Below are positions 1 to 62,811 of a stretch of DNA of 64,000 nt, one piece after another (positions within the stretch are counted from its first letter, which is position 1; each line of letters opens with the position of its first letter). Position numbers and translations under genes: made by a program. The notes under the pieces are model-generated. The model searched no databases. It was given only the letters and a program-made list of their open reading frames with translations, and was not told the origin of the DNA. The stretch covers positions 1 through 64,000 of the forward strand of contig AP039705.1 of NCBI GenBank assembly GCA_051599415.1, in the 5' to 3' direction. This DNA comes from Savitreella phatthalungensis (taxonomy: Eukaryota).

Positions 1-60
1 CCTGTACTTCGTTCAGTTACGTATTGCTAAGGTTAAGACTACTTTCTGCCTTTGCGAGAA
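1..60 (+). other. Sequencing artefact: ONT ligation adapter (1-28), AAGGTTAA flank (29-36) and native barcode (37-60, NB06-type)
   Basis: CCTGTACTTCGTTCAGTTACGTATTGCT-AAGGTTAA-GACTACTTTCTGCCTTTGCGAGAA matches the ONT adapter/native barcode layout as I recall it; it lies distal to the telomere repeats. Confidence 0.93.
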
Positions 61-3580: not shown

Positions 3581-4409
3581 TCCGCCTTTGTTGTCTGGGC
3601 TCATCGAATACATTTGTACACAACGCTGTCACTTCCGCAATCACTCGGTCTATGTATGACAAGATTGTAGCCACACATAAAGCCGTCAAATAGTATCTAT
3701 CTGTGCTAGGTCCCGATCTTGGTGATATCTTGCTTACTGTCTGTATACGGCACGCTGTGTCTCCTTGTCCCTGGGTCCAGCCTGCCATGTCAGCAGCGAC
3801 TGGCCATTTCAGCAGAGTTGTGGTACATATCAGTCACAGTATGGATTGGTACCATCAACTTGGTCCAACCTCTCACAATCCTTCTGCTTCTGTTTTTACT
3901 TGTTTGTAAGCGTTTGGGAAGCGTTTATGTCTGTTTGTGGTGTTAGGTGAGCTTCGTCTGAGTCCTCCTGTGCTGTTTGTCTTGTGTCTGTGTTGCTTCG
4001 TCCATCGCTCTTGATTCCTGCGGCCGTCCTTTGTAACAATGATCAACGGATGAGATGAGACATTCAGGGCTATATTTGTCAGCCTGCTGCTAATATCATG
4101 AATGAGGGATGTGAAAACAGGAGGCAAGTGTCGTAAGACACAGACAAGTTCTGCTAGATGTTCTCAGGCGATAACAATCGAAGGTTGACTCTTGTTGCAT
4201 CGCACGCACACAATGTCTGATTCTCTTGTCTCCGGAACAGCTGTTTGCCACTGCAGAGGTGCATCTTCTGACCAAGAGCGCGTCTCTTCCACTTTTGTTA
4301 GAACTAACAAATTCTTGCCACCATCTGCGGAACATTCTGGTTGCGGCCCCACAGTTTATTGATCTGGTGGACAGGATCCCGGATACTGTGTGATCTATAT
4401 ATGAGACTT

Positions 4410-4525
4410 TGTTACACCTTGGTTTGACTGATCGCTTTTCGCTCCTGGCACGTGATCTGGGTCGCTAGGACCTGATTTCAGATACGAACAAACAGAACAC
4501 GTAGCCTTTATCCAATTGCGTTACA
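4410..4525 (+). mobile_element. Solo LTR-like element, 116 bp, TSD GACTT
   Basis: TGTTAC...GTTACA termini; GACTT at 4405-4409 and 4526-4530; identical copy at 10951-11066. Confidence 0.85.
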
Positions 4526-4992
4526 GACTTGAGAAACGGGATTTTGACAAAATCCCGCGATTTTATCGTTAATCTGGACAGGGTCGAAAATTTCATCAAG
4601 TGGCAATTTATAGGTCAATCTGGCGACGGTCAAGAGTTTGAACAAATCGAAAACAAGAGGTCAATCTGAGGACGGTCACAGGTTGAATCCCGCGTCCCGC
4701 AAAATTGTATCCACTTTCTTGCGGGAAACGGGATGCGGGAAAAAGTGTGGCTGAAAGCAGGAAACGGGATTTCCTCATAAAATAGTAGGAAACAGGATTT
4801 ATAAATCTACTTTGCTCTCATTGGTCGAGCTACCCGTCGAAATCACCTCAGATGAGTCGAGCGTTCATTGCCTGAGCTCCCGCAAAGCGTCGTTCTGATT
4901 CCCACCAGATTCACAAGCTAGTAAGTTGTCGTAGATATAGCGATTGTTGACCTTGTGTAGTTTGGAAGCGTCTTGAAGCTGGAGCAGGCCGT

Positions 4993-6654
4993 TCAACAGG
5001 GTTCGGGACGCGCGCAAGTGGACCGTCCTGCCTGTCGATGGCAAACTGTCGCGGTCCCCTGTTCCTCCTCGTGCTGGTTTGTCGTCAAGTCTGGAGGCAA
5101 AGCTTGTGGCGCTGCTGCTACTGATGGGTTGCCCATTGCTGATGTCCTCGGAGTGGCACCTCCTGCTCGTCCTCGTCCTCCTCTGCTCCCCCTCCCGCCC
5201 CTGCTCCCTCTCCCTCCTCTGCTCCCTCTGCCCCCTCTGGCACCTCTGCCTTGACGTGCTGGTGTAGCCTCCGGTGATGCTGTCTGAGATGTTGTCGTCG
5301 TTGTCTGTTGTCTCTTGGCCGTACGAGCTCGGCCGCGAGAAGCGGAGTTCTGTGCTTGGCTGCTCTGAGGACGCAGCGCTCTGGACCCTGGCAGGGGTGA
5401 AGCAGTTCTGGGTTCGTGTGGCAGTCTTCCTGGCAAGAGATCTCTTCGCTGGTAGAAAGTCAGTAGATGAAGCTTCATAATAGTCGTTGCGGTGAGGCTC
5501 ACGCTCGGGGACTCACCAGGGTCAAAAAGGCCCTCAGTCCGTGCTCGAGTGGTCGGCGATAGTCTTGGACTCTTGAGAGATAGTTAGTAGCATGAAGCAA
5601 TTCGTGTGACATGATGACTGACCTCTTCTGGCAAACGGCGACGGCGTGCACTCGAGATCTGCGGGGTGCTCGGCGCTGGCTGCGGAACTTCGTTTGGCGT
5701 CCCGGTAAGTCCTGGTGTTTGGTAACGTGCATCAGGCTCAGATTCGCTCTGGGGATATGCATCGGGTTCTTCTTCAGTTGGCGCGGCAGGATTGTCCCGG
5801 TATAGACTGTCGATCCGAAGAACAGGGGTATCGGCATCGGTAGGACGCATGCTGTCCAACGGAATTGATTGTCTTAGCATTGTCGGTGACACAGGCGACG
5901 GTATTTGAATAGTCGATTGCTGGCCTTCATTCAACGTAGTAAGGGAACTAGGCTCTGTGCTTCGCTGCTGCTCTGTGACTGTCAGAATCACTGGGTCAAT
6001 AACACTTGGCCGCTCGGATTGCGGTCCACCTGGTGAATTAGCGACTTCCTGCTCTGACTCGACTTCTGACCCTGCAGCCGGTGCTGCAGCTAGAGTAGCA
6101 TCTTGCTGGCTCCCTGATCTTCGCCGTTGGATTGACTGTTGTCGGCTCGGCCTCTTGTCATTAGTTCGATTCTGGAGATATTTCCGTAGCAGTAAGCAGG
6201 GCTCCCAATCATTGACGCACCGCCTGAGCAACGGAATTTCTTCCTGTAATCGTCTGTAGAACATTCCTTTGAGCGTGCTGGGAACCTGAGAGAAGAGCCA
6301 CACATTTCGACGTTCCGTTTCAGTAACAGATGAAGGCTGCCTACCAGCTCGCTCAGCCCGCGCGATAGCTGTGCGCTCATCAAATCGGAGAGAAGTCCAC
6401 AATCTGCGAACAGTCTTACGGTTGTGACTCATGGTCGGCCTGTCAATGCCGAGCTTTTGCATACGAGTCTCTGAGGTTGCGTCTCCGACCACACAAGGAT
6501 CCTCAATGTCTGGCGGTCCCCACTCGGGTGGACGGTCAATCGTGACAGATTCAACATCGTCCGATGGTTCCTGCCTCACGCTCTCTCAATTTGCCTTCCA
6601 GACACGGAACTCCTGGTACTCAGCCAGATCAACTTCAATGCTCGGCTGAGACAT
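4993..6654 (-). pseudogene. CACTA accessory gene (ORF2), spliced, RGG-rich C-terminal part, early TGA
   Basis: ATG 6654 (MSQPSIEVDLAEYQEFRVWKAN*ESVRQEP..) with TGA at 6586-6588, then a long open frame. Predicted introns 5572-5622 (GTCAGT..TACTAAC..AAG) and 5449-5502 (GTGAGC..TACTGAC..CAG) join it to the RGGRGSRGG frame. Confidence 0.6.
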
Positions 6655-6920
6655 GACACGATAGAATCAGCCTCGTTGGACACTGTCTCGCTCTATGTGA
6701 GCATCTCGTGAAGTCGTCTTCATATGACATACGTGCGTACAGAAGAAAGACTTAGCAAATTCTGTTTCACGAAGCGCATGAAAGCGATCTGGCCAGCACG
6801 TGATCAGGAGCAAAACTTCAATGTTCGAACGCGTGCCGGCTGGCACTTCCACTTTCACGTACGCAATAGCTGGAACTCTTTTGGTGATGGAATTCTGGTG
6901 CCTAGTGATAGTGTGATGTA

Positions 6921-9887
6921 CTAGCTGTCTTCGTCATCGTGCGCTTTGTTGAACATTTCGATCCTCCAAGTCTGCACAATGAAGTGTGTTGCCACCTGAG
7001 GTTCGCTCGCTGAAGGGTGTCGGGGACAGTTCAGCAGGCCAATTGGGGCGAGCACCTGCTGAGCATCAACAGGAACGACGTTCGAGCGGATTCCAACAAT
7101 TGCGGGATAAGGCGTCTCCCATGCAGACTGTGCAGGCGCAGTGGGATGTCGTATATTATCTAGCCGGCCAAGTCGATCCGTCCAGAGGATCATGCGTCGA
7201 CAATATAAGGTGCAACGAGTCCCAGTCTCGTCAATCAGTATCCTGTCAACCAAACCATAGTCTGAGGTTCCGTCTGCGCTGCTGAACTTGATATAAGATC
7301 GCGATCGTGTGACTCCCCTGTAGGAATTGCTGGCATTGACTCCGAAGCATTTAGCCGTTCCATGTGCCGGAAAGAGCTCTATCGACCTCCATTCGCGCGT
7401 ACTACCTGGCACAGGAGATGAAAGGCGCGCATATTTGCGTCCTTGAGCGTCGACTAGCTCAAGCTCAGATGCAGCATCAACACAGTGGGCTTCTTCTTGT
7501 ATGCCAAACAGCGCCTTCGCAAGAATGACCTTCCGTCTCAGTTCAAGGTGATTCTTGACCCCAACTCCAACGTGTCTGAGCGACGTAACATCCAACGTAC
7601 CCATAAACCTTTCCGCGGGAAACTGCCAGAATACCCATGCCGGGCCTAGCTTCCGTATGCACTCCGCGATGTGTGTCAACGCATGGATTTGCGACGTGCA
7701 AACCTTCAAGCGGCGACTAGCGATGGGCTTGTCGAGGCGGCCAAAGAGGATTTCGAAGCCTCGAATAAATGATTTGAAGCACCAATCGAGTCTGTCGACT
7801 TCGCGCGACGATAGACAAGTCTTTGTTGCCAGCCGCACTCCTTCGACAAAGAGACGCCAGTTATCGTAGAGCCGGCTATCCACTCCAACCGCGTACATGA
7901 AAGGCACGGAGATCTGCAGGACCCATGCCTGCCAGTCCACTGCCTTCCACTTGCCTCTCTCAGTGAATGGCTGATATCTTCGGGCGACGCTTGTTGGTAT
8001 TTTTGAGCAATCTCGAAGCAATGCGTCAAGACTGCGGATCTGGTCAAGGGAGAGAAAGATATTTCCGTCACTTGGGTCACGTGCACGCTCATTCCTGCCA
8101 CTTTCAAGCAGATTGGCATGCAGCCTCGCAACATTCACCACGAGGTGCATGAGATCAAGACCAAACGAGTGTGGCCAACGGGGAGGTGAATATGCCGAGA
8201 CGCCGAGCGATCTCTTGGCCTCATCTCGTGTTGCATTGTCTGTGATCTGATACAAATCAATGATGTCTTGTTTCAGATTCTTGCGTGGCCGCGGGTCTTC
8301 GCCATTGACAGAAAACATGGTGGTGTAGCAGTAATGCCTATTGTTGGCGTACCAAACGCCGATGCTGGTGCAGAACCGGCAATGGACGAGAGCATTTGTG
8401 CCTTTCAAGCCCATCATCTTTGCCATTGCGGGCAAATCAGCTGAAAAGACAAGAATCTTGACCTTGAGATGCACAACTTGCTGTCTGGCGCTGTGCCAGA
8501 CCTGTACTCCAGAACGCTCAAGCTCCTTATACTCATCGATCATTGTTGCCATGAACGTGCCAAGGTGTTTCACATTACCCGGAATGAAGGCTGCCGGAAA
8601 CGGCGACTGGGCGCGAATTGCCGGCAGATCGCAAAGGTTGAACAGCAGGATCGGCCACATTGAATTACCACCGATCTCAACGCCATCAGTTGTCATCGAT
8701 AACACGATGATGTCCTTGCTGAGGAGCTCCTGACCAAGTTTGCCATCCCAAAAGTCGCTGTACTCGAGCGGCTGGTGTGCTCGCGCTGCTTGTTGAGCTC
8801 GAGCAGCTCGCATGTACTCGTCTCGACGTCTTGCGATTGTCGGTACCGCATATTCGGCTTGCAGCTGCTGCGTGAGTGGTGATACGAAGTACGACTTGAT
8901 CTCCTTGTGAGTAGCGACGACGCATGCAGGCCATGGCTCACCATTGAGCCCCATGCAGAAATTTGCACAGCACGGCCTTGCGATATTTGGTAAAGCCGGG
9001 AGCAGGTCTACGAGCATGCTCTTAGCTGATTTCATCGATATACAAGGCGAGCCGCCAAGGCGAGGCGTCATTCGATCCACAGAGCAAATTGAGGGCTTGA
9101 AAGTGCTATACCAAGCAAGTTTCTCGAGCGCTAAGACCTGTGCATCACTCAGACGTGTGGTACTGAATATGGCATAGTCTTTGAGATAGCCTGACATCAA
9201 GTCAGGGCCACTCTCGTCTGAGGAGCTGTCTTGGCCTGGACTGCTAGAGCGATCTGGAACTGGACTGCTAGAGCGATCTTGGACTTGACTGCTGAAGCGA
9301 TCTGGAACTGGACTGCTAGAGCGATCTTGAACTTGGCTGCTAAAGCAATCTGGAACTGGACTGCTAGAGCGATCTTGAACTTGGCTGCTAAAGCGATCTG
9401 GAACTGGACTGCTAGAGCGATCTGAAACTGGACTGCTGAAATGAATGCATGGCATGTCTGCTTGGACCTCCTCAATTTGAACAGCACCGCTTTGCTCAGC
9501 ATCAATAGTCCAGGATTGGGCCAGCGGTGTAGTCACAGCTGCTAAAGGCACAGTCGCCCTGGACACAGCGAGAATTGACACAGGCGCAGTTGGTGCAGGT
9601 GCAGTTGGTGCAGGTGCAGTTGGTGCAGTTGGTGCTGTTGGTGCAGTTGGCGTAGGAGCAGTTGAAGTAGCAGCAACGGGCGCAGCAGCAGTCAGCACAA
9701 CTGTACTACGAGCCGCCCTTTGAAAACTCTGAGAGTATCGAGTATCGGATCCTTGATCTTCATTGCGACGAATCCTATGAATGATTCTTGCACGCAAATC
9801 CGCCTGGTGCTCTTCAAAGGTCGCAAGAGAGACAAGATGTCGCCTGGTCTTTCAATCGCATGTACACCATCTTCGCTCTGCTCGCAT
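6921..9887 (-). CDS. CACTA/EnSpm TNP2-like (Transposase_21-type) DDE transposase; probable true start 9887, interrupted by TGA at codon 12
   Basis: Motifs TTDGV..SMWPI..NL, FSADLPAMAKMMGLKG.NA..HCRFC, DLMH, WKA.DW, HALTH....IRKLGPAWVFWQFPAERFMG; open from 9851 to 6921. Confidence 0.88.
9236..9440 (-). repeat. 24-bp coding minisatellite (SSSPVPDR / FSSQVQDR) in the transposase N-terminus
   Basis: About 8 tandem units related to GGACTGCTAGAGCGATCTGGAACT. Confidence 0.85.
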
Positions 9888-10029
9888 ACTGGAGACTCAT
9901 TCCGAGGTGCTTGCGCTTGGTAAATCGAAGTGTTGTATGATATCCAAGATGCATTGGCGTATCTTGGCGCATCATACGCAGCCTCTGGTCATTGGCCTGG
10001 GACTCCATCAAGCTCAGCTCAAACCAACA

Positions 10030-10655
10030 AATCCTGTTTCCTGCTGCCAGATCCCGTTTCCCATTTCCTGTTTCTCATTTTCTGCAGCAAGATCTTTGGA
10101 CCTCCTTGCAACTTCGAGTGAAGAGCAGCTCACAACACGATCTCCATTTGCCTTGAGTCACAACTTCGATTCCACGCAAACTTCACGTGCCCTCAATTCC
10201 TACAATTTTTGCGGCCCATTCCCGTTTCCCGTTCTTCGGTTCCCGTTTCCCGGACGTCCATTTCCTGTTTCCTACTTGTGTCCCAAGCATTTCCCGCCTC
10301 CCGTTTCCAGTGTCCCGTCTGTCAAAATCCCGTTTCCTGCTGTCGTCCCAGACATTTCCCGCGTCCCGTTTCCAGTCTCCTGTCTGTGAGAAACCCGTTT
10401 CCTGCAGCAGAATCCCGTTTCCTGCTGTCGTCCTAAGCATTTCCCGCATCCCGTTTCCAGTCTCCTGTCTGCTGAAATCCCGTTTCCCGTGGCAAAATCC
10501 CGTTTCCCGGACATCAAAATCCTGCTTCCCGCGTCACTACCTCAATTTTATTAGATATTTTCAAAAAAATCCCGCGAGGAAAAAATTCGAAATCCCGTCA
10601 TTTCCTGGAGGTTACAGTGAGGAAAAGTTTTCCTCCACAGTAAAATCCCGTCTTT
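10030..10655. repeat. Subterminal repeat array of the CACTA element (TCCCGTTTCC / TCCTGTTTC motifs, with ~85-bp higher-order units)
   Basis: Many motif copies; the reverse-orientation GAAACGGGAT/GAAACAGGAT occurs at 4533-4800. Confidence 0.85.
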
Positions 10656-10699
10656 CAGGTTTTATAGGGATATATATACTGATCAGATTTAGTATTGGT

Positions 10700-10870: not shown

Positions 10871-11103
10871 TGTAACGCAATTGATTAGGAAAGGCTACGT
10901 GTGCAGAATTTGTATCTAAAACCAGCTCGTTGCGACTAAATCTCTTGCCATGTTACACCTTGGTTTGACTGATCGCTTTTCGCTCCTGGCACGTGATCTG
11001 GGTCGCTAGGACCTGATTTCAGATACGAACAAACAGAACACGTAGCCTTTATCCAATTGCGTTACATGCCAGGACAAAGCAATCAGCGACCACAGGCGTT
11101 ACA
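10871..11103 (-). mobile_element. Older diverged solo LTR of the 116-bp family, opposite orientation, split by a nested copy
   Basis: 10871-10950 plus 11072-11103 align to the reverse complement of the 116-bp element (TGTAACGCAATTG..AAAGGCTACGTG; TGCCAGGA..AAGC.ATCAG); flanks ATTGA/ATTGG. Confidence 0.7.
10951..11066 (+). mobile_element. Solo LTR-like element, 116 bp, TSD TGCCA
   Basis: Identical to 4410-4525; TGCCA at 10946-10950 and 11067-11071. Confidence 0.88.
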
Positions 11104-12850: not shown

Positions 12851-13146
12851 TTGTCAGTATCATTCACACAGGAATGTCATTCCCTTAGAGATGCTCCTGT
12901 CAACCGTTGTAAGACCCTCTCACGCTGCGACGCGCTTGCTTGGAGATCATCCATCCGAAAACGTGATGCACGCGCTCGATGAGGGCATCTTGCGCGGCGG
13001 TGCGTGGTGGAGGAGAGAGCTTCAAGATCGCCCGACGACGCCTTATGGATTCGTCGAGAAGCTCCCAATGCGACCGTTGGAACCGTCCTACAAGGCAATG
13101 ATCGAGGTGAGGACAACAATGATCTATATCATATGGATATGGCTAA

Positions 13147-16100
13147 CTATGGTGTGAAATGAATCGAAGATTTGAAGTTCATGAGGGTTCGACATAAGAC
13201 GCGAAGCTGCGAATAGTCGGCGACGCGGATTTGCACGCCGCTGAGTCTCTTGTGCATTTCCAGTTGCGGTACGACTCCATCAGTACAGAGGCGTGTCCGA
13301 ATCTCTGAGAGTCCAGTCTTGGTAGTTGCTTCAATGAGATTGTTGAGCCGGACAATCTCGTCCTGTTGGACAGCTCCGGCCTCGATCCACTGGCGTTCAA
13401 TAGCTGGGTGTGGGGCCAGGATTACATAGTGGAGGCGCTTTGCACCCCTGCAGAGAAATTGGCTTCGGAGCACCATGTCGCTAGTCCTGAAACGGTGACA
13501 GATGCGTGCCCGGTCGTCCTCGTTGACGGCCAGCACTCCCTGCAGCGGGCGTACCTCCAGCGGAAGTTGTGCATCGGCCAGATTTGGTGGGAAGGGCTTG
13601 CCGAGTAGGTCCTCGATCGTCCGTGGACTGGCGACGCGCGGAATCATGTCGAGGCAGTGGAGTTCTGAGCATCGTCCTGCCTCTTCAACGATTACACGTG
13701 CTAGATTGACGACGTCCGGGACTTCTGTGACGGGCGCCGCATTGGCATCTTCAGCGAGTTGGGGCCTTGCGTTGCGATTGACAGACAACATAGCGTCGTC
13801 AAGCCTTGGGCCTTGCGAATCCTCGAGGCCATGGACGTCATTGCCCGGCGCCTGGTTTCGATTTGCGACACCATCGACATGGAGAGCTCCGATGGCTTCG
13901 AACCTTGGACTGTGAGTGGCAGATATGGTTGCGCCGTCGACCATTGGTGATTGGCCAGCGTTGAGCGTCTGTGGTTGGACAGCGTCATTGGGTTGCTCTG
14001 GACGATTCTGCAGCTGCATCGCGTCGCTCACTTCCTGCTGCAGCTCGTCGGAGTCCTGAAACAGCCTTGGGTTGCCGGGAGGCAGGTCGATCGCAAAGTC
14101 TGCTTGTAAGCCTGTGGAGGACGACATCGTCGCCGTCCGTGGCTCTGGAACACGGGGAATGACATTTGCCAACCTAGGCTCTTGATAGCGCGGAGATATA
14201 TTCGAAACGTGCGACCCTGGAATAAAGTCTCGTGACATAGAGTGACGCCCGGTCGGTGTCCACGGCAGCGGAAGATGAAGCTGTGGTTGCCCGTTCTGCG
14301 GCTGTTGTGGCAGCCGATTCTGATTATGGTCAAGCTGCTGGTTGGGCCGCGGACTATTGAAAGGGTTTGACCCCGCCCATTCACGAAAACAGCGAAGCTG
14401 AAGCTCCTTGTCGTCCCTCTGACGCGTGCGACGTAAGACAAGGGCTTGAAGCTCTTCCGCAAGCGTTTTGGCAGATGCTGCTTGTTGACGACACTGCTCG
14501 ACGTCCGCCTTTGCAGCGTCCGCTTCAAGTTGACGCTCCTCGGACAGCGCTGTCATCGCCACCAACTGCATTTTTGCCGTGTCCAGCTGAGTCCTCGTCG
14601 CCTCAAGCTCGTGGCTGCGTCTCCGGGCGTCTGCCTCTGCTTCTTGTTGACGCTCCTCGGACAGCGCTGCCATCGCCTCCAGCTGCGCTCTGGCGGCCTC
14701 CAGCTCGTGACTGCATCTCTGGGCGTCTGCGTTCGCTTCCAGTTGACGCTGCTCGGACAGCGCGGTCATCGCCACCAACTGCGCTTTCGCCGTGTCCAGC
14801 TGAGTCCTTGTCGCCTCAAGCTCGTGACTGCGTCTCCGGGCGTCTGCCTCCGCTTCTTGTTGACGCTCCTCGGACAGCGCTGCCATCGCCTCCAGCTGCG
14901 CTCTGGCGGCCTCCAGCTCGTGACTGCATCTCTGGGCGTCTGCGTTCGCTTCCAGTTGACGCTGCTCGGACAGCGCGGTCATCGCCACCAACTGCGCTTT
15001 CGCCGTGTCCAGCTGAGTCCTTGTCGCCTCAAGCTCGTGACTGCGTCTCCGGGCGTCTGCCTCCGCTTCTTGTTGACGCTCCTCGGACAGCGCTGCCATC
15101 GCCTCCAGCTGCGCTCTGGCGGCCTCCAGCTCGTGACTGCGTCTCTGTGCGTCTGCGTCCGCTTCAAGTCGACGCTGCTCGGACAGCGCTGTCATCGCCT
15201 CCAGCTGAGTCCTTGTCGCCTCAAGCTCGTGACTGCGTCTCTGTGCGTCTGCGTTCGCTTCCAGTTGACGCTCCTCGGACAGCGCTGTCATCGCCTCCAG
15301 CTGCGCTCTGGCGGCCTCCAGCTCGTGACTGCGTCTCTGTGCGTCTGCGTCCGCTTCAAGTCGACGCTGCTCGGACAGCGCGGTCATCGCCACCAACTGC
15401 GCTTTCGCCGTGTCCAGCTGAGTCCTTGTCGCCTCAAGCTCGTGACTGCGTCTCTGTGCGTCCGCGTCCGCTTCAAGTTGACGCTCCTCGGACAGCGCTG
15501 CCATCGCCTCCAGCTGCGCTCTGGCGGCCTCCAGCTCGTGACTGCATTTCTGGGCGTCTGCGTTCGCTTCTTGTTGACGCTCCTTCAACTGCGCTTTTGC
15601 CCTCTCCAGCTGAGTCCTCGTCGTCTCAAGCTCGTGACTGCGTCTCTGTGCGTCCGCGTCCGCTTCTCGTTGACGCATCTCGGACTGCGCTGTCGTCGCC
15701 TGCAACTCCGCTTTCGCCGTCTCCAGCTGCGCTCTGGTGGCCTCAAGCTGAGTCCTTGTCGCCTCAAGCTCGCGACTGCGTCTCTGTGCGTCCGCGTCCG
15801 CTTCTCGTTGACGCATCTCGGACTGCGCTGTCGTCGCCTGCAACTCCGCTTTCGCCGTCTCCAGCTGCGCTCTGATGGCCTCAAGCTCAGTCCTGGTCGC
15901 CTCAAGCTCGTGACTGCGTCTCTGTGCGTCCGCGTCCGCTTCAAGTCGACGCTCCTCGGACTGCGCTGTCGTCGCCTGCAACTCCGCTTTCGCCGTCTCC
16001 AGCTGCGCTCTGATGGCCTCAAGCTCAGTCCTGGTCGCCTCAAGCTCGTGACTGCGTCTCTGTGCGTCCGCGTCCGCTTCAAGTCGACGCTCCTCGGACT

Positions 16101-17946
16101 GCGCTGTCGTCGCCTGCAACTCCGCTTTTGCCGTATCCAGCTGAGTCCGCATCGCCTCTAGCTGGGCTTTCGTGATCTCAACCCCAGTCCTCGTGGTCTC
16201 AAGCTGAGTCCTCGTGGCCTCCAGCTCGTGGCTACGTCTCTGCGCGTCTGCATCCGCTTCGCGTTGACGCTCCTCGGACAGAGCTGTCGTTGTCTCTAGC
16301 TGGGCTTTCGTGGTCTCAAGCTGAGTCCTCGTCGCCTCAAGCTGAGCCTTCGTTGTCTCCAGTTGAGTCCTCGTCGCCTCAAGCTGGGCTGTCTCGTCCC
16401 CGAGCTGTGCTGTCTTGTCCTCCAGCTCACGGCGAGACCTTTCTGCATCCGCTTTTGCCCGGAGTGAACATTCCTTGGCAAGCGTTGTCACACACTCCAG
16501 CTCGCGGCGGGACCTCTCCGCGTCTGCGTCTGCTCGGAGTCGATGCTCTTCGGCGAGCGCCGTCATAAAGTCCAGCTCGCGGCGAGACCTCTCCAGATTT
16601 GCTTCTGCTTGACGACAATATGTGTAAGCGGCTGAGTGCGCTGCGGTGGCTTCACAGCGACTTGTCTCTGCAATCGCTGCCGAACTCTTTGCTTCTCGTT
16701 GGTGCTGCTCGGCGGCCGTATTTGCCTTGGCGACCTGCAGGCGAAGGTCTTGGGCAAGTTTCTCTAAGGTCTCCATTGCACGGCCACGGCTTTCGGCAAG
16801 CGCTGTGGCAGCGACTGTATCAGCGCGTCGTAGTTCTGCGACAAGCTTGAGGTCGTTGAGCTGCTCTGACAGCTGTTGCGTCTTAGCGCACAGCTCCGCC
16901 ATCTGAGCGCTGCGAGCAAGCGCGACCTTCGATGCAGCTGAAGCATCGGCCAAGTAACCTGCTGCAGATGCAGTTACAACATTCAGCTCAATCTGGCGCG
17001 AAGTTGCCAGTGCACTGGCAGCGTTGCGCTCATCGCTACGTGTCTGCAAGAGACGCTGCAGCTCAGCTACTTGATGCGCTGATGACGCTAGATCGGTCAT
17101 GGTGGTGTCAAGCTGGGTTTGGCGGTCGACAGCAAGCTTGGTTGCAGCATCGCGATCGGCGGTGCACCGCTGAAGCTGGTTCTCCAGGTCGGTCACAGTG
17201 GTGTCGAGCCTGGTGGTACGAGCCCTGATGACTTCGCCGTCAGCCTGTGAGCGCTCAAGCTGGGTAAGCAGTGATCCCTGAGCCGCTCTGTGCTCGTTGT
17301 CAGCCTGCTTCATATCAGCCCGAAGTTGATTGCACTCTGCTTTGGCGCGTGCAAGGCGTTGTGCAGTCTCCTTTAGGCTCATCGACAAGTGACTGACCTT
17401 TCCTTCTAAGGATTTGTTCTCAGCCATTGCATCGGTGAAGTCCTTCAACACTGCTTGCAGATCAGTTGTACCTCTGGCGTCGCAGCTGTCCGCGGTGACG
17501 GTGTCCTCATGGCTATTGGGTCGCCTGCGCTTACAATTGTGTGAGCACCCGCCGTCGCCAAGCTTCTCGACTTTTGACTCTATTGCATGGCATCTTCCAC
17601 CAATGAACCGCAGCACCAGCGTGATGAGGTCTATCTCGTGGGTAGAAATGTCATTCCAAGCCTTGCGCATGATGCTTGCCAGCGCATGCTCTACCTGTGC
17701 TGCGTCAGCACTCGGCTCAAGCGGTTCTACTGAGTCCTCGGGAGACTCGGCCGGCTGTGCTGAGGTCGCACATGCCGCTGATGCCGAGATGGGTGTCTGC
17801 CTGAGCATGTCTTGATCCTGTCCGTCACGCTCGTGCCCTCGACGCTCGTTAGCCTCGCGCAGCAGGCTTGTATTGCGTGCCACAAGCCTGCCAGTATTGT
17901 GCACTGGCTCGATTCGCCTCCGCATGACGACATGTCTACCCAACAT
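13147..17946 (-). CDS. Orphan 1599-aa long coiled-coil tandem-repeat protein
   Basis: Uninterrupted 4.8-kb ORF; heptad-rich repeats such as QRRSHELEATRTQL..TALSEERQLEADADA; disordered linker and globular-looking C-terminal ~190 aa. Confidence 0.8.
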   Translation of the reverse strand: MLGRHVVMRRRIEPVHNTGRLVARNTSLLREANERRGHERDGQDQDMLRQTPISASAACATSAQPAESPEDSVEPLEPSADAAQVEHALASIMRKAWNDISTHEIDLITLVLRFIGGRCHAIESKVEKLGDGGCSHNCKRRRPNSHEDTVTADSCDARGTTDLQAVLKDFTDAMAENKSLEGKVSHLSMSLKETAQRLARAKAECNQLRADMKQADNEHRAAQGSLLTQLERSQADGEVIRARTTRLDTTVTDLENQLQRCTADRDAATKLAVDRQTQLDTTMTDLASSAHQVAELQRLLQTRSDERNAASALATSRQIELNVVTASAAGYLADASAASKVALARSAQMAELCAKTQQLSEQLNDLKLVAELRRADTVAATALAESRGRAMETLEKLAQDLRLQVAKANTAAEQHQREAKSSAAIAETSRCEATAAHSAAYTYCRQAEANLERSRRELDFMTALAEEHRLRADADAERSRRELECVTTLAKECSLRAKADAERSRRELEDKTAQLGDETAQLEATRTQLETTKAQLEATRTQLETTKAQLETTTALSEERQREADADAQRRSHELEATRTQLETTRTGVEITKAQLEAMRTQLDTAKAELQATTAQSEERRLEADADAQRRSHELEATRTELEAIRAQLETAKAELQATTAQSEERRLEADADAQRRSHELEATRTELEAIRAQLETAKAELQATTAQSEMRQREADADAQRRSRELEATRTQLEATRAQLETAKAELQATTAQSEMRQREADADAQRRSHELETTRTQLERAKAQLKERQQEANADAQKCSHELEAARAQLEAMAALSEERQLEADADAQRRSHELEATRTQLDTAKAQLVAMTALSEQRRLEADADAQRRSHELEAARAQLEAMTALSEERQLEANADAQRRSHELEATRTQLEAMTALSEQRRLEADADAQRRSHELEAARAQLEAMAALSEERQQEAEADARRRSHELEATRTQLDTAKAQLVAMTALSEQRQLEANADAQRCSHELEAARAQLEAMAALSEERQQEAEADARRRSHELEATRTQLDTAKAQLVAMTALSEQRQLEANADAQRCSHELEAARAQLEAMAALSEERQQEAEADARRRSHELEATRTQLDTAKMQLVAMTALSEERQLEADAAKADVEQCRQQAASAKTLAEELQALVLRRTRQRDDKELQLRCFREWAGSNPFNSPRPNQQLDHNQNRLPQQPQNGQPQLHLPLPWTPTGRHSMSRDFIPGSHVSNISPRYQEPRLANVIPRVPEPRTATMSSSTGLQADFAIDLPPGNPRLFQDSDELQQEVSDAMQLQNRPEQPNDAVQPQTLNAGQSPMVDGATISATHSPRFEAIGALHVDGVANRNQAPGNDVHGLEDSQGPRLDDAMLSVNRNARPQLAEDANAAPVTEVPDVVNLARVIVEEAGRCSELHCLDMIPRVASPRTIEDLLGKPFPPNLADAQLPLEVRPLQGVLAVNEDDRARICHRFRTSDMVLRSQFLCRGAKRLHYVILAPHPAIERQWIEAGAVQQDEIVRLNNLIEATTKTGLSEIRTRLCTDGVVPQLEMHKRLSGVQIRVADYSQLRVLCRTLMNFKSSIHFTP
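14510..16600 (-). repeat. Coding tandem repeat array with units of 75+21n bp, including a 213-bp higher-order repeat
   Basis: Near-identical DNA units encoding 25, 32, 39, 46 and 53 aa repeats. Confidence 0.9.
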
Positions 17947-18041
17947 GCTTTCCGATAAAAAAAAATCGCTGATTTGTACTTAGCCAACAGGAAAATTGGT
18001 ACGTGCGTCACGACTGGTGCTTGCAGCAGAGCCCTGTGAGC

Positions 18042-19379
18042 ATGTCTGAAGTCCCTCCTCCGGTGAACTTGCTGCACGAATCGAACCCTGACCATTGGTG
18101 TGGGTCAAATGAGAAGTTGAACCTGCTAGTCGGAAGTCCTTTGCGTGTGGAAACGCTAGTGGTGCTTGGTGAGCGCCCTCCAACAGGAACTGCCGAGTGG
18201 GAGGAGCATCTGCGCTTGTGGAATCAAGTGTGCGAGGCTGGCAAGCTTGACCTTTTTCACCGCCAATACCATGAAGCATTCTCAGTCATGAAACCCTTTG
18301 GTTCAATCACAATGCTGAAGGCGATACTCAACGCACATTTTGTTGCCGAGGGGCTGATGGCCCCGGCAGAGGCTGCAGAGCTGCTGAGGGACAACAAGGC
18401 CCTTGCTCAAGATGCTGTCGCGCCAAAGGAAGCCCTTGATCGATGGCAGAAGGCGCAGGAACAAGCACTGCGGACGGAACAGCAGGCCAAGTACAGCTCT
18501 ACTGATGAGGACAAAGTAGGCGCCGTCTACTTCTCCTGCTCGTTTGTGGACAAAGACGATCCTTGTGACCTTGGTAGCACAGTTGACTGCTCGCGATCGC
18601 GATGCTATTCGTCGCAGCTACGCACATATGCAGGGGCCACGTGGTCACTGCGCAGGTCTGATCGCTACCCTATCAGATTTCTTGCGCACTCGTATCTCGG
18701 CGGACCAGAGAACGATAGCCTGTGGCAGCATATACTGAAGAAAAGGTTGGAGCTTGTTGGGCATGAGAAACACAGACACGTCGTCTTTGTTGCCCTTTGT
18801 GCGAGACATAAGAGTTCCGCGCACACGCTTCCTCCGCCTCCGCCTGCAAAACTCGAGTTTGTAGACGCCGCCGAGACCCTTGTCTGCGCAGCGTCCAAAT
18901 CTCTCTGCTTCTGGGGCGGCGGAGGCAACTATAACCGATGCCAGTTGGATCTTGAACGATATGGCTTGCCGCGAGATACTGAGGAAAGTTTTCCGCTACA
19001 CATGCCACGCCGCGGGTGGACTTCGCCGTCGCAAAGCATCACCTCCCGTTTGGCACTGCAGATTGTGTACAGCGCAGAGAAGGCGTATGAGGACGGCGTA
19101 GCAAAAGCGCCGACTCTTCTTGCTAGTGAGTGGGAGAGAGACTATCATCGACAAGCCGTTCTTGCGACCCAGATTCTGTACCATGCAGAAGTGACTCTGA
19201 ACGGAATGCAATCGCAGACAATTAAGCAGCTCCTCGAGTACAGGCAAGAGCTAGCACAAGCCACCGCTACAAAGTCCTGGGAGATCCACCGAGCAAGACA
19301 GGCAAGACCGGCTGTGCAACGGGCGCTTGATTGCGAACAGTGGCTCAAGGAAGAAGTCTTCGGAAAATTGAAATGCTAA
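18042..19379 (+). CDS. Hypothetical protein with a divergent GIY-YIG nuclease-like motif set
   Basis: 445-aa ORF from ATG 18042; ordered motifs GAVY (18519), YAGAT (18627), R..AH (18675-18689), E in AAETL (18873), GGNYN (18921-18935). Confidence 0.6.
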   Translation: MSEVPPPVNLLHESNPDHWCGSNEKLNLLVGSPLRVETLVVLGERPPTGTAEWEEHLRLWNQVCEAGKLDLFHRQYHEAFSVMKPFGSITMLKAILNAHFVAEGLMAPAEAAELLRDNKALAQDAVAPKEALDRWQKAQEQALRTEQQAKYSSTDEDKVGAVYFSCSFVDKDDPCDLGSTVDCSRSRCYSSQLRTYAGATWSLRRSDRYPIRFLAHSYLGGPENDSLWQHILKKRLELVGHEKHRHVVFVALCARHKSSAHTLPPPPPAKLEFVDAAETLVCAASKSLCFWGGGGNYNRCQLDLERYGLPRDTEESFPLHMPRRGWTSPSQSITSRLALQIVYSAEKAYEDGVAKAPTLLASEWERDYHRQAVLATQILYHAEVTLNGMQSQTIKQLLEYRQELAQATATKSWEIHRARQARPAVQRALDCEQWLKEEVFGKLKC

Positions 19380-19931
19380 GCTTACATGGTCGACCCTTCT
19401 GACCGACTATCCGTTCATAGGCCTTCATGCTGGCCTTAGATTTGATATATGCTTATCGATAATCCCCGAAGTGAGTCAGAGTGAGTCGTGAAGGAAAGGA
19501 CACAGCACAGTGCAAGCAATGCATTGCAGTCAATTGATGTTGCACAACAGGCGCCAGTGCTAATTGCAGTCAAAGGAATGAGAATGCAGGCAACAGTGCA
19601 GGCATCAAGTGTAAGACGGGAAACAGGAGATGACAGGTGGAAAGCAATTGGGAAATCAACAATTTGACAGATGCTAAGTAGGGGTGAATCTCGCCGTCGA
19701 CCTCACTTTGAGCATGTGTGTATGTTCTTCGGCATCGTGTAGAAATAACCAGCATGTGCGATTGCTGATGACCTATGATACACGCGCCACGAGCTTGTAT
19801 TTGGGTTGCTATGCCACGAGACGTGCCAACACATAATCTTGTGCTAGTCCCGCGATCGTTAGCAGGCTGCAATTAGACAGTTTAAATGATGAGGGTTTGC
19901 GTCGACCGCTCACAGTAGCCTGTACATCAGA

Positions 19932-22316
19932 ATGTCGGTACGAGGCTTCGTCTCGGTCGCACTGCTCTTTGGAGCTTCGAAGGCTGCCCTTCGCCTGGTC
20001 GAGTCGAGCCCTGCGAAGAATTTCAACGAGATGTACCTCCTGGGCACCGGTCGACTCGGCATCGCAGTCGGCGGCGGCGGCGCTTCGGAGACAATCAACA
20101 TCAATGAGGATGGTGTGTGGTCTGGCAGTTTCAGAGATCGGGTGAACCCAAAGGCGAAAGGCGCCATGTCCGGCATCATCGAAGCCTCGATGGGCGGAGA
20201 CTTGAAAGGCGCAGATGCCGCCGTCAAGGCTTCCTATTTCGGTGTGCCGCCGTCGCCGAACGCCTACGACCGCGTTGGCCAGCTTACGTTGTCGTTCTCA
20301 GACGCCGACGGGAGCTTTGAGAGAGCGCTGGACATCTCGACAGCCGTGGCCACCGTCGTCTGGGGCTCCATCAAGCGCGAGTACCTTGTTAGCTTCCCGG
20401 ACAAAGTGGCTGCTATTCACGTCACAAGCGACAGGGCAACCTCGTTTTCCGTCAAGCTTGCACGAGACGCTAATGTCGGGAAGGAGGCCACCAAGGATTC
20501 GATCACGCTCACCGGCAACCAGGGAGGAAACAGCTGGGCGGCTGGCGTACGTGCCGTCACAAAGTCCGGCACTGTTTCAGCTGGTGCCGGTACGCTGACC
20601 ATATCCGGAACGACTGACGCCGTCATCCTCCTCTCTGCTTACTCCTCCAACCACAAAAGCGATCCTGCGGCGGGTGTCGCTACGGACCTCGATGCCGCGT
20701 CACAAAAGTCGTGGGACGACCTGCTGGCAGCTCATACTGCCGACTACCAGAAGCTGTTCAACCGATGTACGTTGTCGCTCGGTAGCAGCAGCGGCGGTGT
20801 CGGCGGCAACGGCGGCGGTGTTGGCGGCAACGGCGGCGGTGTTGGCGTTGGCGGCGGTGTTGGCGTTGGCGGCGGTGTTGGAGTCGGCGGTGTCGGTGGC
20901 GGCGGCTCGAATGCCAGCACGTCCTCTCGCGTAAAAGCAGCGGCGACGAACTTTGATCCCGACCTGACTACAACACTCTTCCAGTTCGGACGCTACTTAC
21001 TGATCGCGTCCTCACGAGAGGGGAGCTTGCCAGCGAATCTCCAGGGCATCTGGAACGACGTGAGCTCACCCGTCTGGGGTTCCAAATTCACCATCAACAT
21101 CAACACCGAGATGAACTATTGGCTGGCTTACACGACGAACCTGCTGGACACGACCGGGCCGCTGTACGATCTGATCGAGAAAGTTTGGACGCGCGGCAAG
21201 TCGGTAGCGTCGAGCATGTACGGCCTCAACGGCTCAGTCGCCCACCACAACACTGATTTGTGGGGTGATGCTGCACCTGTCGACAGTCTGACGGGCTCGA
21301 CCGCCTGGCCTTCTGGCCTCGGCTGGCTATCGACTCACCTGTATGAGCATGCCTTGTTCGCCGGCGATAAGGACTTTCTGACGTCGAAGCTACCGATCCT
21401 CGAGGACGCTGCCCGATTCTACCTCGGTTTCATGAAGGACTTCAAAGGATTCATGGTCACGCCGGTGAGCATCTCGCCCGAGCACTACTTCTCTGCGGGC
21501 GCTGTCTCGCCGGGACCAACGTGCGATAATTCGATCGTCTGGTCGTTGTTCGGGATGGTGATGGACGGCGGGTCGAGCCTCGGATCGCAGATCGGACCGG
21601 TTAGAGACAAGATCCCTCCGCCGAGAGCTTCGACGTACGGTGGCTTAGCAGAATGGATGCCAGAATTGAACGTGGAAGAGACCGAGCTCGGGCATCGTCA
21701 CTTCAGTCACCTGTGGGGATTGTATCCCGGTGGACAGATCACGTCCGCCGACACGAAGGCATTCACGATGGCCAAGCTGGCTTACGAGCGACGCATGCAG
21801 CATGGTGGTGGATACACTGGCTGGTCTCGCGCTTGGGCGACAGCGCTGTGTGCCAGACTTTTCAAAGCAGATGACGTAGCAAGCAATGTTGCACACATGT
21901 TCGGAGACTCTCTCCAGCCGCAGTCACTGATCAACAATGGCCAGCCGGCTAAATTTCAGCTCGACGGCAACTATGGCATCACGGCTGCCATCGCTGAGGC
22001 ACTCTTGCAAAGTCACGAGCGAGTGAGCGCAGATGGGAAGACCGCTCAGCCGTGGACTGGGTCGCTCGCTGACTCGATTCCGGTGATTCGCGTTCTGCCT
22101 GCGCTCCCACCCGCATGGACGAAGGTCGGTGGTGGTAGCGCCCATGGGCTGCTGGCCAGAGGCGGCTTCACGGTCGATATCGACTGGTCGGCAGCAGGCA
22201 CCCCGACCGCCGTCAAGGTATCTGGGAAGGGATCCTTCCTCTACGTCGTGGGAAGCGCCAGCATCACGACGGGCAAGGTAGTCAGCGTGTCCGGAGAGTC
22301 GTGGTCTTCTTCGTAG
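19932..22316 (+). CDS. Secreted GH95 alpha-1,2-L-fucosidase-like glycoside hydrolase
   Basis: Signal-like N-terminus; [72 protein letters not shown]. Confidence 0.95.
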
Positions 22317-60156: not shown

Positions 60157-62811
60157 TCACAGAATTGCAGCCGCAGCAGCGAGCATGACCAGCACTGTGC
60201 CGGCAGACCCGCCCACGTGAACCGTGTACGCCGTGTTGCTATCTGCAATCGGCAATGCAGTCGATCTCGAGGTTCCATCGGCATCGAATTTTGGCAATCC
60301 GGATGTGCTTGAACCACCGGTGCCCGACGTTGCCACAGTCTCCGCGGAGTCCTCCGCCTCAGTCTCGGTCGACGTGCCTGGCTCAGTCGTTTCCGTCGCG
60401 ACAGCCGTCGTCCCAGCAACGCTCGCAGATTCCTTCGGCTGGCTCGAAGACTGTGGTGGTTGTTGCTGCTGCTGTGTGATAGTCACATTCTTACCCTGAA
60501 TCATCTGTGGGGCTTTGTCAGTCTGTGTCTCGAGTGCCGGGTTGAATGCCGATACCGTTGTCGTCAGATCTCCCGAACCTGCCTCCTTGTCTGCACAAGC
60601 GCTCGCGTTCGCCACAGCCGCCACAGCTCCTAGTACATCGTGATCGACGTGCCCTGCTTCGCTGCTCACGGGAACCACGTACGGCTGGCCGTTGATGAGG
60701 TTGATGGTGACGGTGGTCGAGCTAGCTGCATTGGCCTCTGCCGCCGCATTCGCAGCCACCTGCTCCGTTCCCGGCACAATCGGCACAGCATCCTTCGGCA
60801 CCGTCGTCAGAACTGTCTTGTTCACTGGCGCGTTCACAGGAGTGTTGGCAGCACCCGCAGCGGCATCGATCGCTGCAGCACTAGTGCTGTTTTTGTCCTC
60901 TTTCTTCTTATCCTTGTCATCCTCCTTCTTCTTGTCCTTGTCGTCGTCCTTCTTTTTGTCCTTCTTGTCATCTTTTTCATCGCCTTTCTTGTCGTCCTTC
61001 TCGTTCGGAGGCTTCACGCTGTCATTGGCCTCGTCGCACTCATCGGACGTGACAGGTTGCACTTTCGCCACCTCGTCCTCGCACGGCTGGTCGACAGGCG
61101 TGGTCGTGTTGAGTGCAATCTCTTGCTTGGCATTGGCACGACTTGTGTCGGTGATGTTGTTCGTGTCTGCTATGCCCGTGAGATTCTTGGTAACAGCAGA
61201 GACAATCGATGTCGGCGTTGGTATCGGCGTCTGCATGGGACTCTGCATTATGTTGAGTGAAGGCGCAGGCGTCAGCGACGGGATTGACTTCTTCATTTCG
61301 TGACCGCCCAGTTCGTGGCTAGTCGATGTCGGCATTGGTATCGGCGTCTGTATCGGAGTCTGCATCATGTTGAGTGACGGCGCAGGCGTCAGCGATGGGA
61401 TCGAATTCTTCATTTCGTGACCACCCAGAGCGTTGCCGCCAGGACCTTCCGTGCCGTGGTCGCTCATCGCGTTGCCACCAGGTCCTCCCGTGCTGTGGTC
61501 ACCCATCTCGCTGCCACCAGATCCTCCCATGCCGTGATCGCCCATAGTGTTGCCACCAGGACCTCCCATGCCGGGGCCGCCCATAGCGTTGCCACCAGGT
61601 CCTCCCGTGCTGTGGTCACCCATCTCGCTGCCACCAGATCCTCCCATGCCGTGATCGCCCATAGTGTTGCCACCAGGACCTCCCATGCCGGGGCCGCCCA
61701 TAGCGTTGCCACCCTGAGCGTTGCCGCCAGGAACTCCCGTGCCGTGATCGCCCATAGCGTTGCCAGCGGGACTTCCGATGCCGTGATCGCCCATCTCGTT
61801 GCCACCAGGTCCGCCCAAGCCGTGATCGCCCATAGCGTTGCCACCAGGACCTCCCGTGCCGTGGTCGCCCATAGCGTTGCCCCCAGGACCTCCCGTGCCG
61901 TGGTCGCCCATCTCGTTGCCACCAGGAACTCCCATGCCGTGATCGCCCATAGCGTTGCCAGCGGGACCTCCCATGCCGTGGTCGCCCATAGCGTTGCCAC
62001 CAGGACCTCCGATGCCGTGATCGCCCATAGCGTTGCTACCCAGAGCACCGCCGCCAGACCCTCCCATGCCGTGATCGCCCATAGCGTTGCCAGCGGGACC
62101 TCCGATGCCGGGGCCGCCCATAGCGTTGCCACCAGGTCCTGTCAAGCCATGATCGCCCATGGCATTGCCACCAAATCCTCCGACGTCACCAGTTCCGTTC
62201 TGACATCGCTCCTGCTCCCCGCGACCGACGGGACCCGGCGCTTGCGCACTTTTCACATCGCGCTTCCACCAGTCGATTCCCGTGATGATGGGATCGACCA
62301 CGGCGAGGGTCCAGGTAGGGTCGATTTCGGAGAGCCCTGTGTAGAGGATGGCTCTGTCGTTGGTGCGGTCGCGGGATGCTTCGGGGGTTGACGACGGCGG
62401 GCCAGCGATGATGTAGTCGATCTGTGGTCGAGTCAGGTTGGATGCCATGATCATCTGCCGGTCGTCTTCGTTCAGCGACCATAGCAACAGCGCAGCGTAC
62501 ATCTCCGCAGCCTCCCACGGAGACATCGTGTACGCGATATCGTCAGATCCGCCGCCGTCAGAAGCGTCTGTCAGATCGAGGTCGTTAGGGAGAGCCGTGT
62601 CCGTTGTGTTCAAAGACCCGGACATGGTCGATACCGGGGTAGAAACCGATGTCGGCGTGGACGAGGTGGTGATGGACTTGAGATCGGTCATTGTCCTGGG
62701 AGTGGGCGTGGGCGTTGAGATCATGTTCGCCACAGACTTGCTCGGGGAATCGTTGAGTGGAATAGCAAAGGCGGTCCCAAAAGAGACTGCAAGGAAGACG
62801 GCAGCTCGCAT
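60157..62811 (-). CDS. Secreted, probably GPI-anchored surface protein with Gly/Met/His 13-aa repeats
   Basis: Signal MRAAVFLAVSFGTAFA, KR site, about 18 NAMGDHGxGGPGG units, K/D-rich tract, S/T-rich stalk, hydrophobic C-terminus VLVMLAAAAAIL. Confidence 0.8.
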   Translation of the reverse strand: MRAAVFLAVSFGTAFAIPLNDSPSKSVANMISTPTPTPRTMTDLKSITTSSTPTSVSTPVSTMSGSLNTTDTALPNDLDLTDASDGGGSDDIAYTMSPWEAAEMYAALLLWSLNEDDRQMIMASNLTRPQIDYIIAGPPSSTPEASRDRTNDRAILYTGLSEIDPTWTLAVVDPIITGIDWWKRDVKSAQAPGPVGRGEQERCQNGTGDVGGFGGNAMGDHGLTGPGGNAMGGPGIGGPAGNAMGDHGMGGSGGGALGSNAMGDHGIGGPGGNAMGDHGMGGPAGNAMGDHGMGVPGGNEMGDHGTGGPGGNAMGDHGTGGPGGNAMGDHGLGGPGGNEMGDHGIGSPAGNAMGDHGTGVPGGNAQGGNAMGGPGMGGPGGNTMGDHGMGGSGGSEMGDHSTGGPGGNAMGGPGMGGPGGNTMGDHGMGGSGGSEMGDHSTGGPGGNAMSDHGTEGPGGNALGGHEMKNSIPSLTPAPSLNMMQTPIQTPIPMPTSTSHELGGHEMKKSIPSLTPAPSLNIMQSPMQTPIPTPTSIVSAVTKNLTGIADTNNITDTSRANAKQEIALNTTTPVDQPCEDEVAKVQPVTSDECDEANDSVKPPNEKDDKKGDEKDDKKDKKKDDDKDKKKEDDKDKKKEDKNSTSAAAIDAAAGAANTPVNAPVNKTVLTTVPKDAVPIVPGTEQVAANAAAEANAASSTTVTINLINGQPYVVPVSSEAGHVDHDVLGAVAAVANASACADKEAGSGDLTTTVSAFNPALETQTDKAPQMIQGKNVTITQQQQQPPQSSSQPKESASVAGTTAVATETTEPGTSTETEAEDSAETVATSGTGGSSTSGLPKFDADGTSRSTALPIADSNTAYTVHVGGSAGTVLVMLAAAAAIL

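Follow-up and report, generated by a model that had tools for sequence, protein, structure and literature searches.

What are two adjoining genes of no known family, placed head to head near a telomere, and do they serve the cell or themselves? The genes, here called A and B, lie in the first 64,000 nucleotides of contig AP039705.1 of Savitreella phatthalungensis (GCA_051599415.1; this whole stretch is called the window), described in the available part of PMC8877625 as a leaf-dwelling yeast and a relative of Protomyces and Taphrina. The window, with telomeric repeats at 59-197, lies at the left end of contig C17 in an assembly of 12.7 Mb and 27 contigs that has a telomere tract at all 52 contig ends checked. 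NCBI annotates one paralogue of gene B as a hypothetical protein of this species. The locus is organised as follows.

13147-17946, minus strand: gene A (A17), 1599 amino acids (aa), with a short N-terminal region, an acidic coiled-coil rod, a low-complexity linker and a conserved C-terminal head
17947-18041: divergent spacer, 95 bp between the start codons; the spacers on C16 and C13 are 44 bp long and of unrelated sequence
18042-19379, plus strand: gene B (B17), 445 aa, a putative GIY-YIG-type endonuclease

The original prediction described two intact open reading frames (ORFs) of 1599 and 445 aa, head to head across 95 bp on the telomere side of the first recognisable gene, and both arrangement and placement agree with our data. 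The sole stop in each coding frame is the terminal one, while the other five frames contain 30-64 stops in A and 9-24 in B. The region is bounded by an intact GH95 (alpha-fucosidase-like) gene at 19932-22316, which carries a Gly/Val repeat insertion. The short gap and the absence of introns were also correctly described, but neither is remarkable here. A 95-bp gap is ordinary for this genome, with a spacing of at most 95 bp in 10 of the 56 divergent ORF pairs (crude first-ATG ORFs, the C17 and C16 pairs counted) in the window and in the fetched parts of the 54 ends (outer 10 kb of all, 17-30 kb of 23). Long intronless ORFs, such as CDC48, TEL1-like and NUP192, are usual in the window.

The gene pair A and B is real and undescribed, and its function is uncertain. 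As an explanation we tentatively favour a lineage-restricted selfish cassette, in which a nuclease would be accompanied by a restraining partner, because an orphan nuclease-like gene turns over at the ends and its neighbour is never lost, similar to Spok and wtf.

Whole-genome searches and searches of the fetched ends, with B16 as a query in the latter only, revealed A and B sequence together at four out of four loci, all of them left ends, and no solo copy of either gene. The two genes are linked and decay jointly: both are intact on C17 and C16, and both are broken on C13 and C19. The multicopy, always paired and subtelomeric occurrence that the original prediction had proposed to look for was confirmed, and the genes are neither single-copy orthologues of known genes nor families that fail to co-occur. 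The C16 locus possesses an intact head-to-head pair with an A gene of 1285 aa (A16), a B gene of 457 aa (B16) and a gap of 44 bp. The pair on C13 is a recent copy of the one on C16; both of its genes are broken, and A is truncated precisely at the join to the common subtelomeric repeat. On C19 we found scrambled pieces of A17 type, a third B lineage (B19), which is broken, and a B17-type gene represented by its 3′ end. The B17-type piece corresponds to one segment of the window.

19241-19475, plus strand: 3′ end of B17 with flank, duplicated at C19:6784-7054 (84% over 271 nt)

A weak match of the A rod on C2 (E 4.6e-5) was put down to coiled-coil composition, as the A head matched only C17 and C16.

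The intact A and B paralogues are old and under purifying selection. B17 and B16 are 44% identical, with a synonymous divergence (dS) of 2.4 and a nonsynonymous to synonymous ratio (dN/dS) of 0.22 (bootstrap 0.12-0.34, 250 of 300 replicates usable), and the A heads of C17 and C16 have a dS of 1.5 and a dN/dS of 0.35 (bootstrap 0.20-0.50, 298 of 300 replicates usable); these Nei-Gojobori estimates are approximate, since dS is near saturation. The third B lineage, on C19, has a dN/dS of 0.21 and was constrained before breaking. The value for A16 and A13, 0.81, has an interval of 0.29-2.9 and is uninformative. Purifying selection on both genes shows that A and B are real, long-maintained proteins. 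Four metagenome pieces from another study (two low-depth runs) map to A17, the spacer and the beginning of B17, differing by 1-6 substitutions over 198-256 nt; the pair therefore probably occurs in more than one strain.

The genome also encodes a second paired orphan module, in which a gene of 308/318 aa lies upstream of, and in the same orientation as, a GIY-YIG-like gene of 426/551 aa (G19 and G25). Both loci, C19:7854-11558 and C25 at about 200197-203785, are intact, and the two GIY-YIG-like genes are 26% identical with a dN/dS of 0.44.

A common subtelomeric repeat is present in the outer 10-12 kb of 49 of the 54 ends (at 3 as short pieces only), and absent at C16L, C17L, C25R, C23R (Ty3/Gypsy) and C27L (rDNA). 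Both intact A/B ends are among these five repeat-free ends (hypergeometric p ~0.007, post hoc), and both broken copies, on C13 and C19, are at ends carrying the repeat. C25R, which bears the second orphan module, is also without it. Beside B17 a remnant of the repeat was detected.

19469-19682, minus strand: inverted remnant of the common subtelomeric repeat, matching 44 other ends, with 119 of the 120 matches in reverse orientation

This remnant is located just 3′ of B17, and the homology to the C19 copy ends where it begins. In a simple reading, ends without the common repeat escape ectopic exchange; in a bold reading, the repeat is the target of the nuclease. The bold reading would lead to a new eukaryotic selfish chromosome-end element, which we regard as quite improbable, in which a GIY-YIG nuclease on a coiled-coil tether of ~150 nm would cut repeat-bearing ends or kill spores lacking it, and repair would copy the cassette-bearing end. 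If true, such an element would explain the intact pairs at repeat-free ends and the B17 flank joined to a truncated repeat, and perhaps also fold-back fragments on C19 as suppressors of RNA interference (RNAi).

These fold-backs derive from orphan-gene fragments and are located at C19:9134-9629 (308-aa gene) and 13101-13784 (A17-type repeats and the C22R orphan). They fold strongly, and their longest exact match to A17 is 17 nt. The idea that they are hairpin RNAi suppressors is weak, because local inverted repeats are present at about ten other ends. An Argonaute gene was identified (C4:668669-669571). The search of the genome detected two RNase III proteins only, which we take to be Rnt1/Pac1-like and mitochondrial-ribosome-like, and no RNA-dependent RNA polymerase (RdRP), both being weak negatives. 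The C22R orphan is not an RdRP. Long telomere-adjacent ORFs are present at C1L, C8R, C10R and C22R, and presumably resemble telomere-linked helicase elements.

The predicted nuclease character of gene B is based on one region of the protein.

18519-18929, plus strand: GIY-YIG-like core with Y163, Y196-G198, R212-x3-H216, H230, E278 and N296

According to the available part of PMC1564403, the GIY-YIG superfamily is marked by GIY and YIG boxes, a central Arg and a C-terminal Glu (and Asn), in this order. In B these residues are degenerate but correctly ordered, and B17, B16 and B19 all keep the same Tyr, Tyr-Gly, Arg, His, Glu and Asn. Three conserved Cys (C166, C183 and C188 of B17) are located between the two Tyr motifs, and B17 has no strongly hydrophobic segment. 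Overall, B probably has a GIY-YIG fold. The earlier description of B as GIY-YIG-like is upheld for the order of the motifs, but not at the level of profiles, where the matches are weak and none is significant. A custom hidden Markov model (HMM), built from 32 viral SegA-like domains, matched best at the Tyr-Gly motif in each of the five candidate proteins, and the top ESM Atlas cluster for B (0.82, a lead only) comprises 21% PF01541 members. The sole PHROG match for G19 is GIY-YIG (E 0.35). PDB sequence searches with B returned nothing meaningful. The spacing from Gly to Arg is 14 in B, and 8 in G19 and G25, which is the commonest value in the viral set (9 of the 15 with the motif); the spacing of the Tyr motifs in B is far longer than in that set.

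The same data bear on the possibility that B is not a nuclease, or that the pair is the remnant of an integrated DNA virus or linear plasmid, linked by position only. This would agree with the sub-threshold score of every GIY-YIG profile match, with the AF2 model of B (pLDDT 33) and with the hhalign comparison of the B and G families, which gave just 1.2% probability and placed its match on the Tyr-Gly/Arg-His motif. However, three weak methods (ESM Atlas, PHROG with G19, and the HMM) agree on GIY-YIG, the GC content of A and B by codon position is host-like, and no protein-primed polymerase was found over the cut-off in the genome. Relatives of the B alignment were found in neither viral nor metagenome contigs, the phage tblastn search yielded noise only (E 5-10), and a SegF query revealed no viral relatives. 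We consider this explanation improbable.

Gene A encodes a long rod and a compact head, with the following parts.

17521-17532, minus strand: basic tetrapeptide resembling a nuclear localisation signal (NLS), just before the rod
14365-17517, minus strand: proline-free rod, aa 144-1194, 1051 aa, net charge -47
14516-16590, minus strand: repeat expansion with units of 25, 32, 39, 46, 60 and 68 aa
13147-13740, minus strand: C-terminal head, aa 1403-1599, Arg-rich and basic, 41% identical to A16

Assuming one continuous helix, the A17 rod would measure ~156 nm, and the rod of A16 (944 aa) ~140 nm. Sixteen out of the seventeen A17 repeat units have a length of 4 mod 7, that is, heptads plus one stutter, a count for which a binomial test overstates the significance, since the units descend from one another. 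In A16 the units are mostly multiples of 7. Repeat expansions that break the heptad phase are not kept in A. The units of A17 and A16 are unrelated in sequence and the rods similar in length (1051 vs 944 aa), and the near-equal lengths hint at selection on length (n=2). A16 also possesses the basic tetrapeptide, which may act as an NLS. Good alignment of the two proteins is limited to their final 200 residues, with a weak one at the N-terminus. Matches of A to SMC-family profiles are weak and confined to the rod, and A is not SMC- or Rad50-like, because no Walker A pattern is present in A17 or A16.

Several of these observations are related to another explanation, a host-beneficial nuclear machine of nuclease and scaffold that would maintain chromosome ends, act in meiosis or defend against mobile DNA. 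As its model we take Slx1-Slx4, a GIY-YIG nuclease with a large scaffold partner. The pair would survive at repeat-free ends because these escape ectopic exchange, in line with the C13 A gene being cut exactly at the join to the common repeat. The long purifying selection on A and B, the convergent rod length, which suggests a spacing function, and the NLS-like motif of A17 and A16 also argue for such a machine. Nevertheless, other fungi yielded no homologue, an Slx1-like gene of the genome's own is present on C4, copies are repeatedly born and lost, and A lacks the Walker A motif. A host machine appears doubtful.

For the A head, the best of five AF2 models (pLDDT 59.6, pTM 0.61; the others 31-44) shows, at low confidence, two tandem ferredoxin-like domains of ACT/RRM type. 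The search of folds with predicted structures, proposed with the original prediction, was made with the A head and gave generic ferredoxin-like matches. ACT, RRM and PII matches of the head are tied at Z 6-8.7 (top Z 8.7, rmsd 2.2 over 64 residues), and ACT domains score equal to or above RRMs. The ferredoxin-like fold is common, and its predicted presence shows no function for the A head. No viral fold matched the model at E<=0.001. LINE ORF1p is absent among the listed PDB fold matches, and is not thereby excluded. Complex prediction of B with the A head scored 0.00, the fold of the partner being uncertain.

The head model is relevant to a retroelement origin, in which the pair would be a relic or domesticated part, without reverse transcriptase (RT), of a telomere-associated Penelope/Terminon-like or LINE-like element, A being an ORF1-like protein with coiled coil and RRM-like domain and B a stand-alone endonuclease. 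In the available part of PMC6431247, Terminons bear stand-alone GIY-YIG endonucleases and coiled-coil ORFs at telomeres, and the A-head model is ferredoxin-like with RRM among the tied matches. However, the stronger or equal ACT scores weaken the latter point, and the second nuclease family (G19 and G25) lacks the Cys pair. Terminon ORFs are co-oriented, whereas A and B diverge. The eight RVT_1 matches of the genome correspond to seven Ty3/Gypsy-type elements and one telomerase, none at the A/B loci; no Penelope-like RT is among them, although a very divergent RT could be missed. A hammerhead ribozyme was not found near the loci, with three chance-level Rfam matches at E<=1 over window positions 1-23000 and six end loci. 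We judge a retroelement origin unlikely.

The database searches agree with the earlier statement that neither gene belongs to a known family, and the pair is lineage-restricted. B17 matched solely the copies of this genome among 5.8 billion proteins, and 1.84 billion representatives likewise contained no homologue from another genome. A four-protein profile search returned only two of its own members. None of 7999 longer candidate proteins matched the A head, a weak negative since that collection contains neither A17 nor A16 as an exact sequence, and ESM Atlas gave no usable match for the head. Kinase and PD-(D/E)XK families did not match A or B, and no Spok was detected among the homologues.

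Under the selfish cassette that we tentatively prefer, the pair would move between chromosome ends via ectopic subtelomeric exchange. B would be a DNA-damaging GIY-YIG endonuclease in the nucleus, descended from a mobile element, and A its obligate nuclear partner, a coiled coil of ~140-156 nm with a nucleic-acid-binding head, which would restrain or position B. Harm would come to cells or spores inheriting B activity but no new A, and by this poison-antidote logic both genes would stay intact although the host gains nothing. For B we infer nuclease activity and a nuclear location, for the two proteins a physical or functional coupling, and for the cassette selfishness.

Several observations weigh against this explanation. 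The four loci are not independent, C13 being derived from C16, and a low copy number with plain purifying selection fits a useful host gene equally well. Ascospores were not seen in culture, as far as the available part of PMC8877625 describes S. phatthalungensis, and no antidote-only copy was found here, unlike in wtf as presented in the available part of PMC11551393. Pfam, NCBIfam and PHROG profiles gave no match for B17 or B16, and B17 reached rank 6 of 1345 in the custom HMM search at 3.5 bits only. In a motif-chain test, with gap limits set after the sequences were seen, one of 300 shuffles and three of 340 unrelated ORFs scored at least as high as B17. For B16, 1 of 300 shuffles scored as high. 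The motif chain gives no support to B19 and G25, whose scores were reached by 25 and 125 of 300 shuffles.

The A/B pair is undescribed in the Savitreella literature searched, and no description of a two-gene GIY-YIG poison-antidote or end-homing system of fungal nuclei was found in the titles and abstract openings covered, subscription journals and supplements being outside this coverage. If the cassette is selfish, it would be such a system in a fungal nucleus. The host is culturable and belongs to the same subphylum as the hosts of wtf and tdk1, and the two diverged pairs allow a comparison of cognate and non-cognate rescue. If it serves the host, the pair would be a new nuclease-plus-ruler machine. 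In either case, two independent in-phase repeat expansions of similar length are a natural test of selection on coiled-coil length.

The DNA distal to the pair harbours mobile elements.

~4396-10674: CMC/CACTA-like DNA transposon, TA-rich at its ends and with subterminal inverted repeats; the A/B pair is outside
5584-6585: second ORF of this transposon
6921-9851: Transposase_21 frame, open over 976 codons

A decayed MULE and a solo-LTR-like piece were also identified. The description of this region as a transposon graveyard fits the MULE, but not the Transposase_21 element with its open frame. It had also been suggested that the pair is cargo of a larger mobile element; for the adjacent transposon this is unlikely, as the pair is not between its termini and no copy of the Transposase_21 element was found at the other 53 ends as fetched. 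Positions 4396-10674 are missing from one low-depth contig (depth 3.7, short side 26 nt) of another strain and therefore appear to be a polymorphic insertion, in which A and B are not contained. An exact direct duplication of 116 bp is located at 4410-4525, inside the left end of the transposon, and at 10951-11066, just past its right end. The solo-LTR-like repeat at 3600-4040 matches the flanks of the C23R Ty3/Gypsy element and some twelve further ends. The tandem arrays next to the telomere (39, 14, 23, 51 and 65 bp) at 198-803 recur at no other end. At the inspected contig starts, similar non-telomeric sequence of ~60 nt (window 1-58) is present outside the telomere repeats, and is probably leftover sequencing adapter. 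An 884-aa secreted-looking protein with Gly-rich tandem repeats of 13 aa and without Pfam match is encoded at 60157-62811.

By the features tested, A/B is not a Spok, Terminon/Penelope, CMC-cargo or SMC-type system. Similar to Slx1-Slx4, a putative GIY-YIG-like nuclease is found with a large partner. Slx1, in the available part of PMC1564403, carries a RING finger at its C-terminus and no terminal Asn, unlike B, which retains the Asn and has no RING match. With free-standing GIY-YIG homing endonucleases of the T4 SegA type, B shares the motif order and the Arg-x3-His helix; it differs in being presumably nuclear and GC-rich, and in its long insertion between the Tyr motifs, helical N- and C-terminal extensions and giant partner gene.

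Similar to Terminon/Penelope elements, as far as the partly available sources describe them, the pair has a telomeric position, a stand-alone GIY-YIG-like domain, Cys between the motifs and a coiled-coil accessory ORF. Penelope-type endonucleases carry Cys between the motifs GIY and YIG (PMC8557442, available part). The counterpart in B of the Penelope CCHH motif may be the three conserved Cys with His216/His230. However, A/B has no detected RT or hammerhead ribozyme, a head-to-head layout and old single copies under purifying selection. Compared with LINE ORF1p, a coiled coil followed by an RRM, A also has a rod, and its head may be ferredoxin-like, according to one moderate model.

Fungal killer elements such as Spok and wtf show a genomic behaviour similar to A/B in the available parts of PMC6660238, PMC11551393 and PMC12941216. 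The wtf and tdk1 genes of Schizosaccharomyces pombe, of the same subphylum, are lineage-restricted poison-antidote genes, and Tdk1 has a coiled-coil stalk and a globular head (PMC11551393, available part). Unlike A/B, they are single genes, with no nuclease described in that part and no sequence similarity detected, and antidote-only alleles are known in wtf. Spok of Podospora is likewise fungal, and among its dispersed paralogues is a subtelomeric pseudogene; killing requires its predicted nuclease, its coiled coil varies in repeat length, and it provides a precedent for nuclease-based killing in fungi (PMC6660238, available part). Spok is one protein of PD-(D/E)XK nuclease and kinase, widespread in ascomycetes, whereas A/B consists of two genes, with a GIY-YIG-like domain and a rod of ~1000 residues but without a kinase. 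With drivers and toxin-antidote systems the pair shares tight linkage at all four loci, a multicopy state and the absence of an outside homologue of B.

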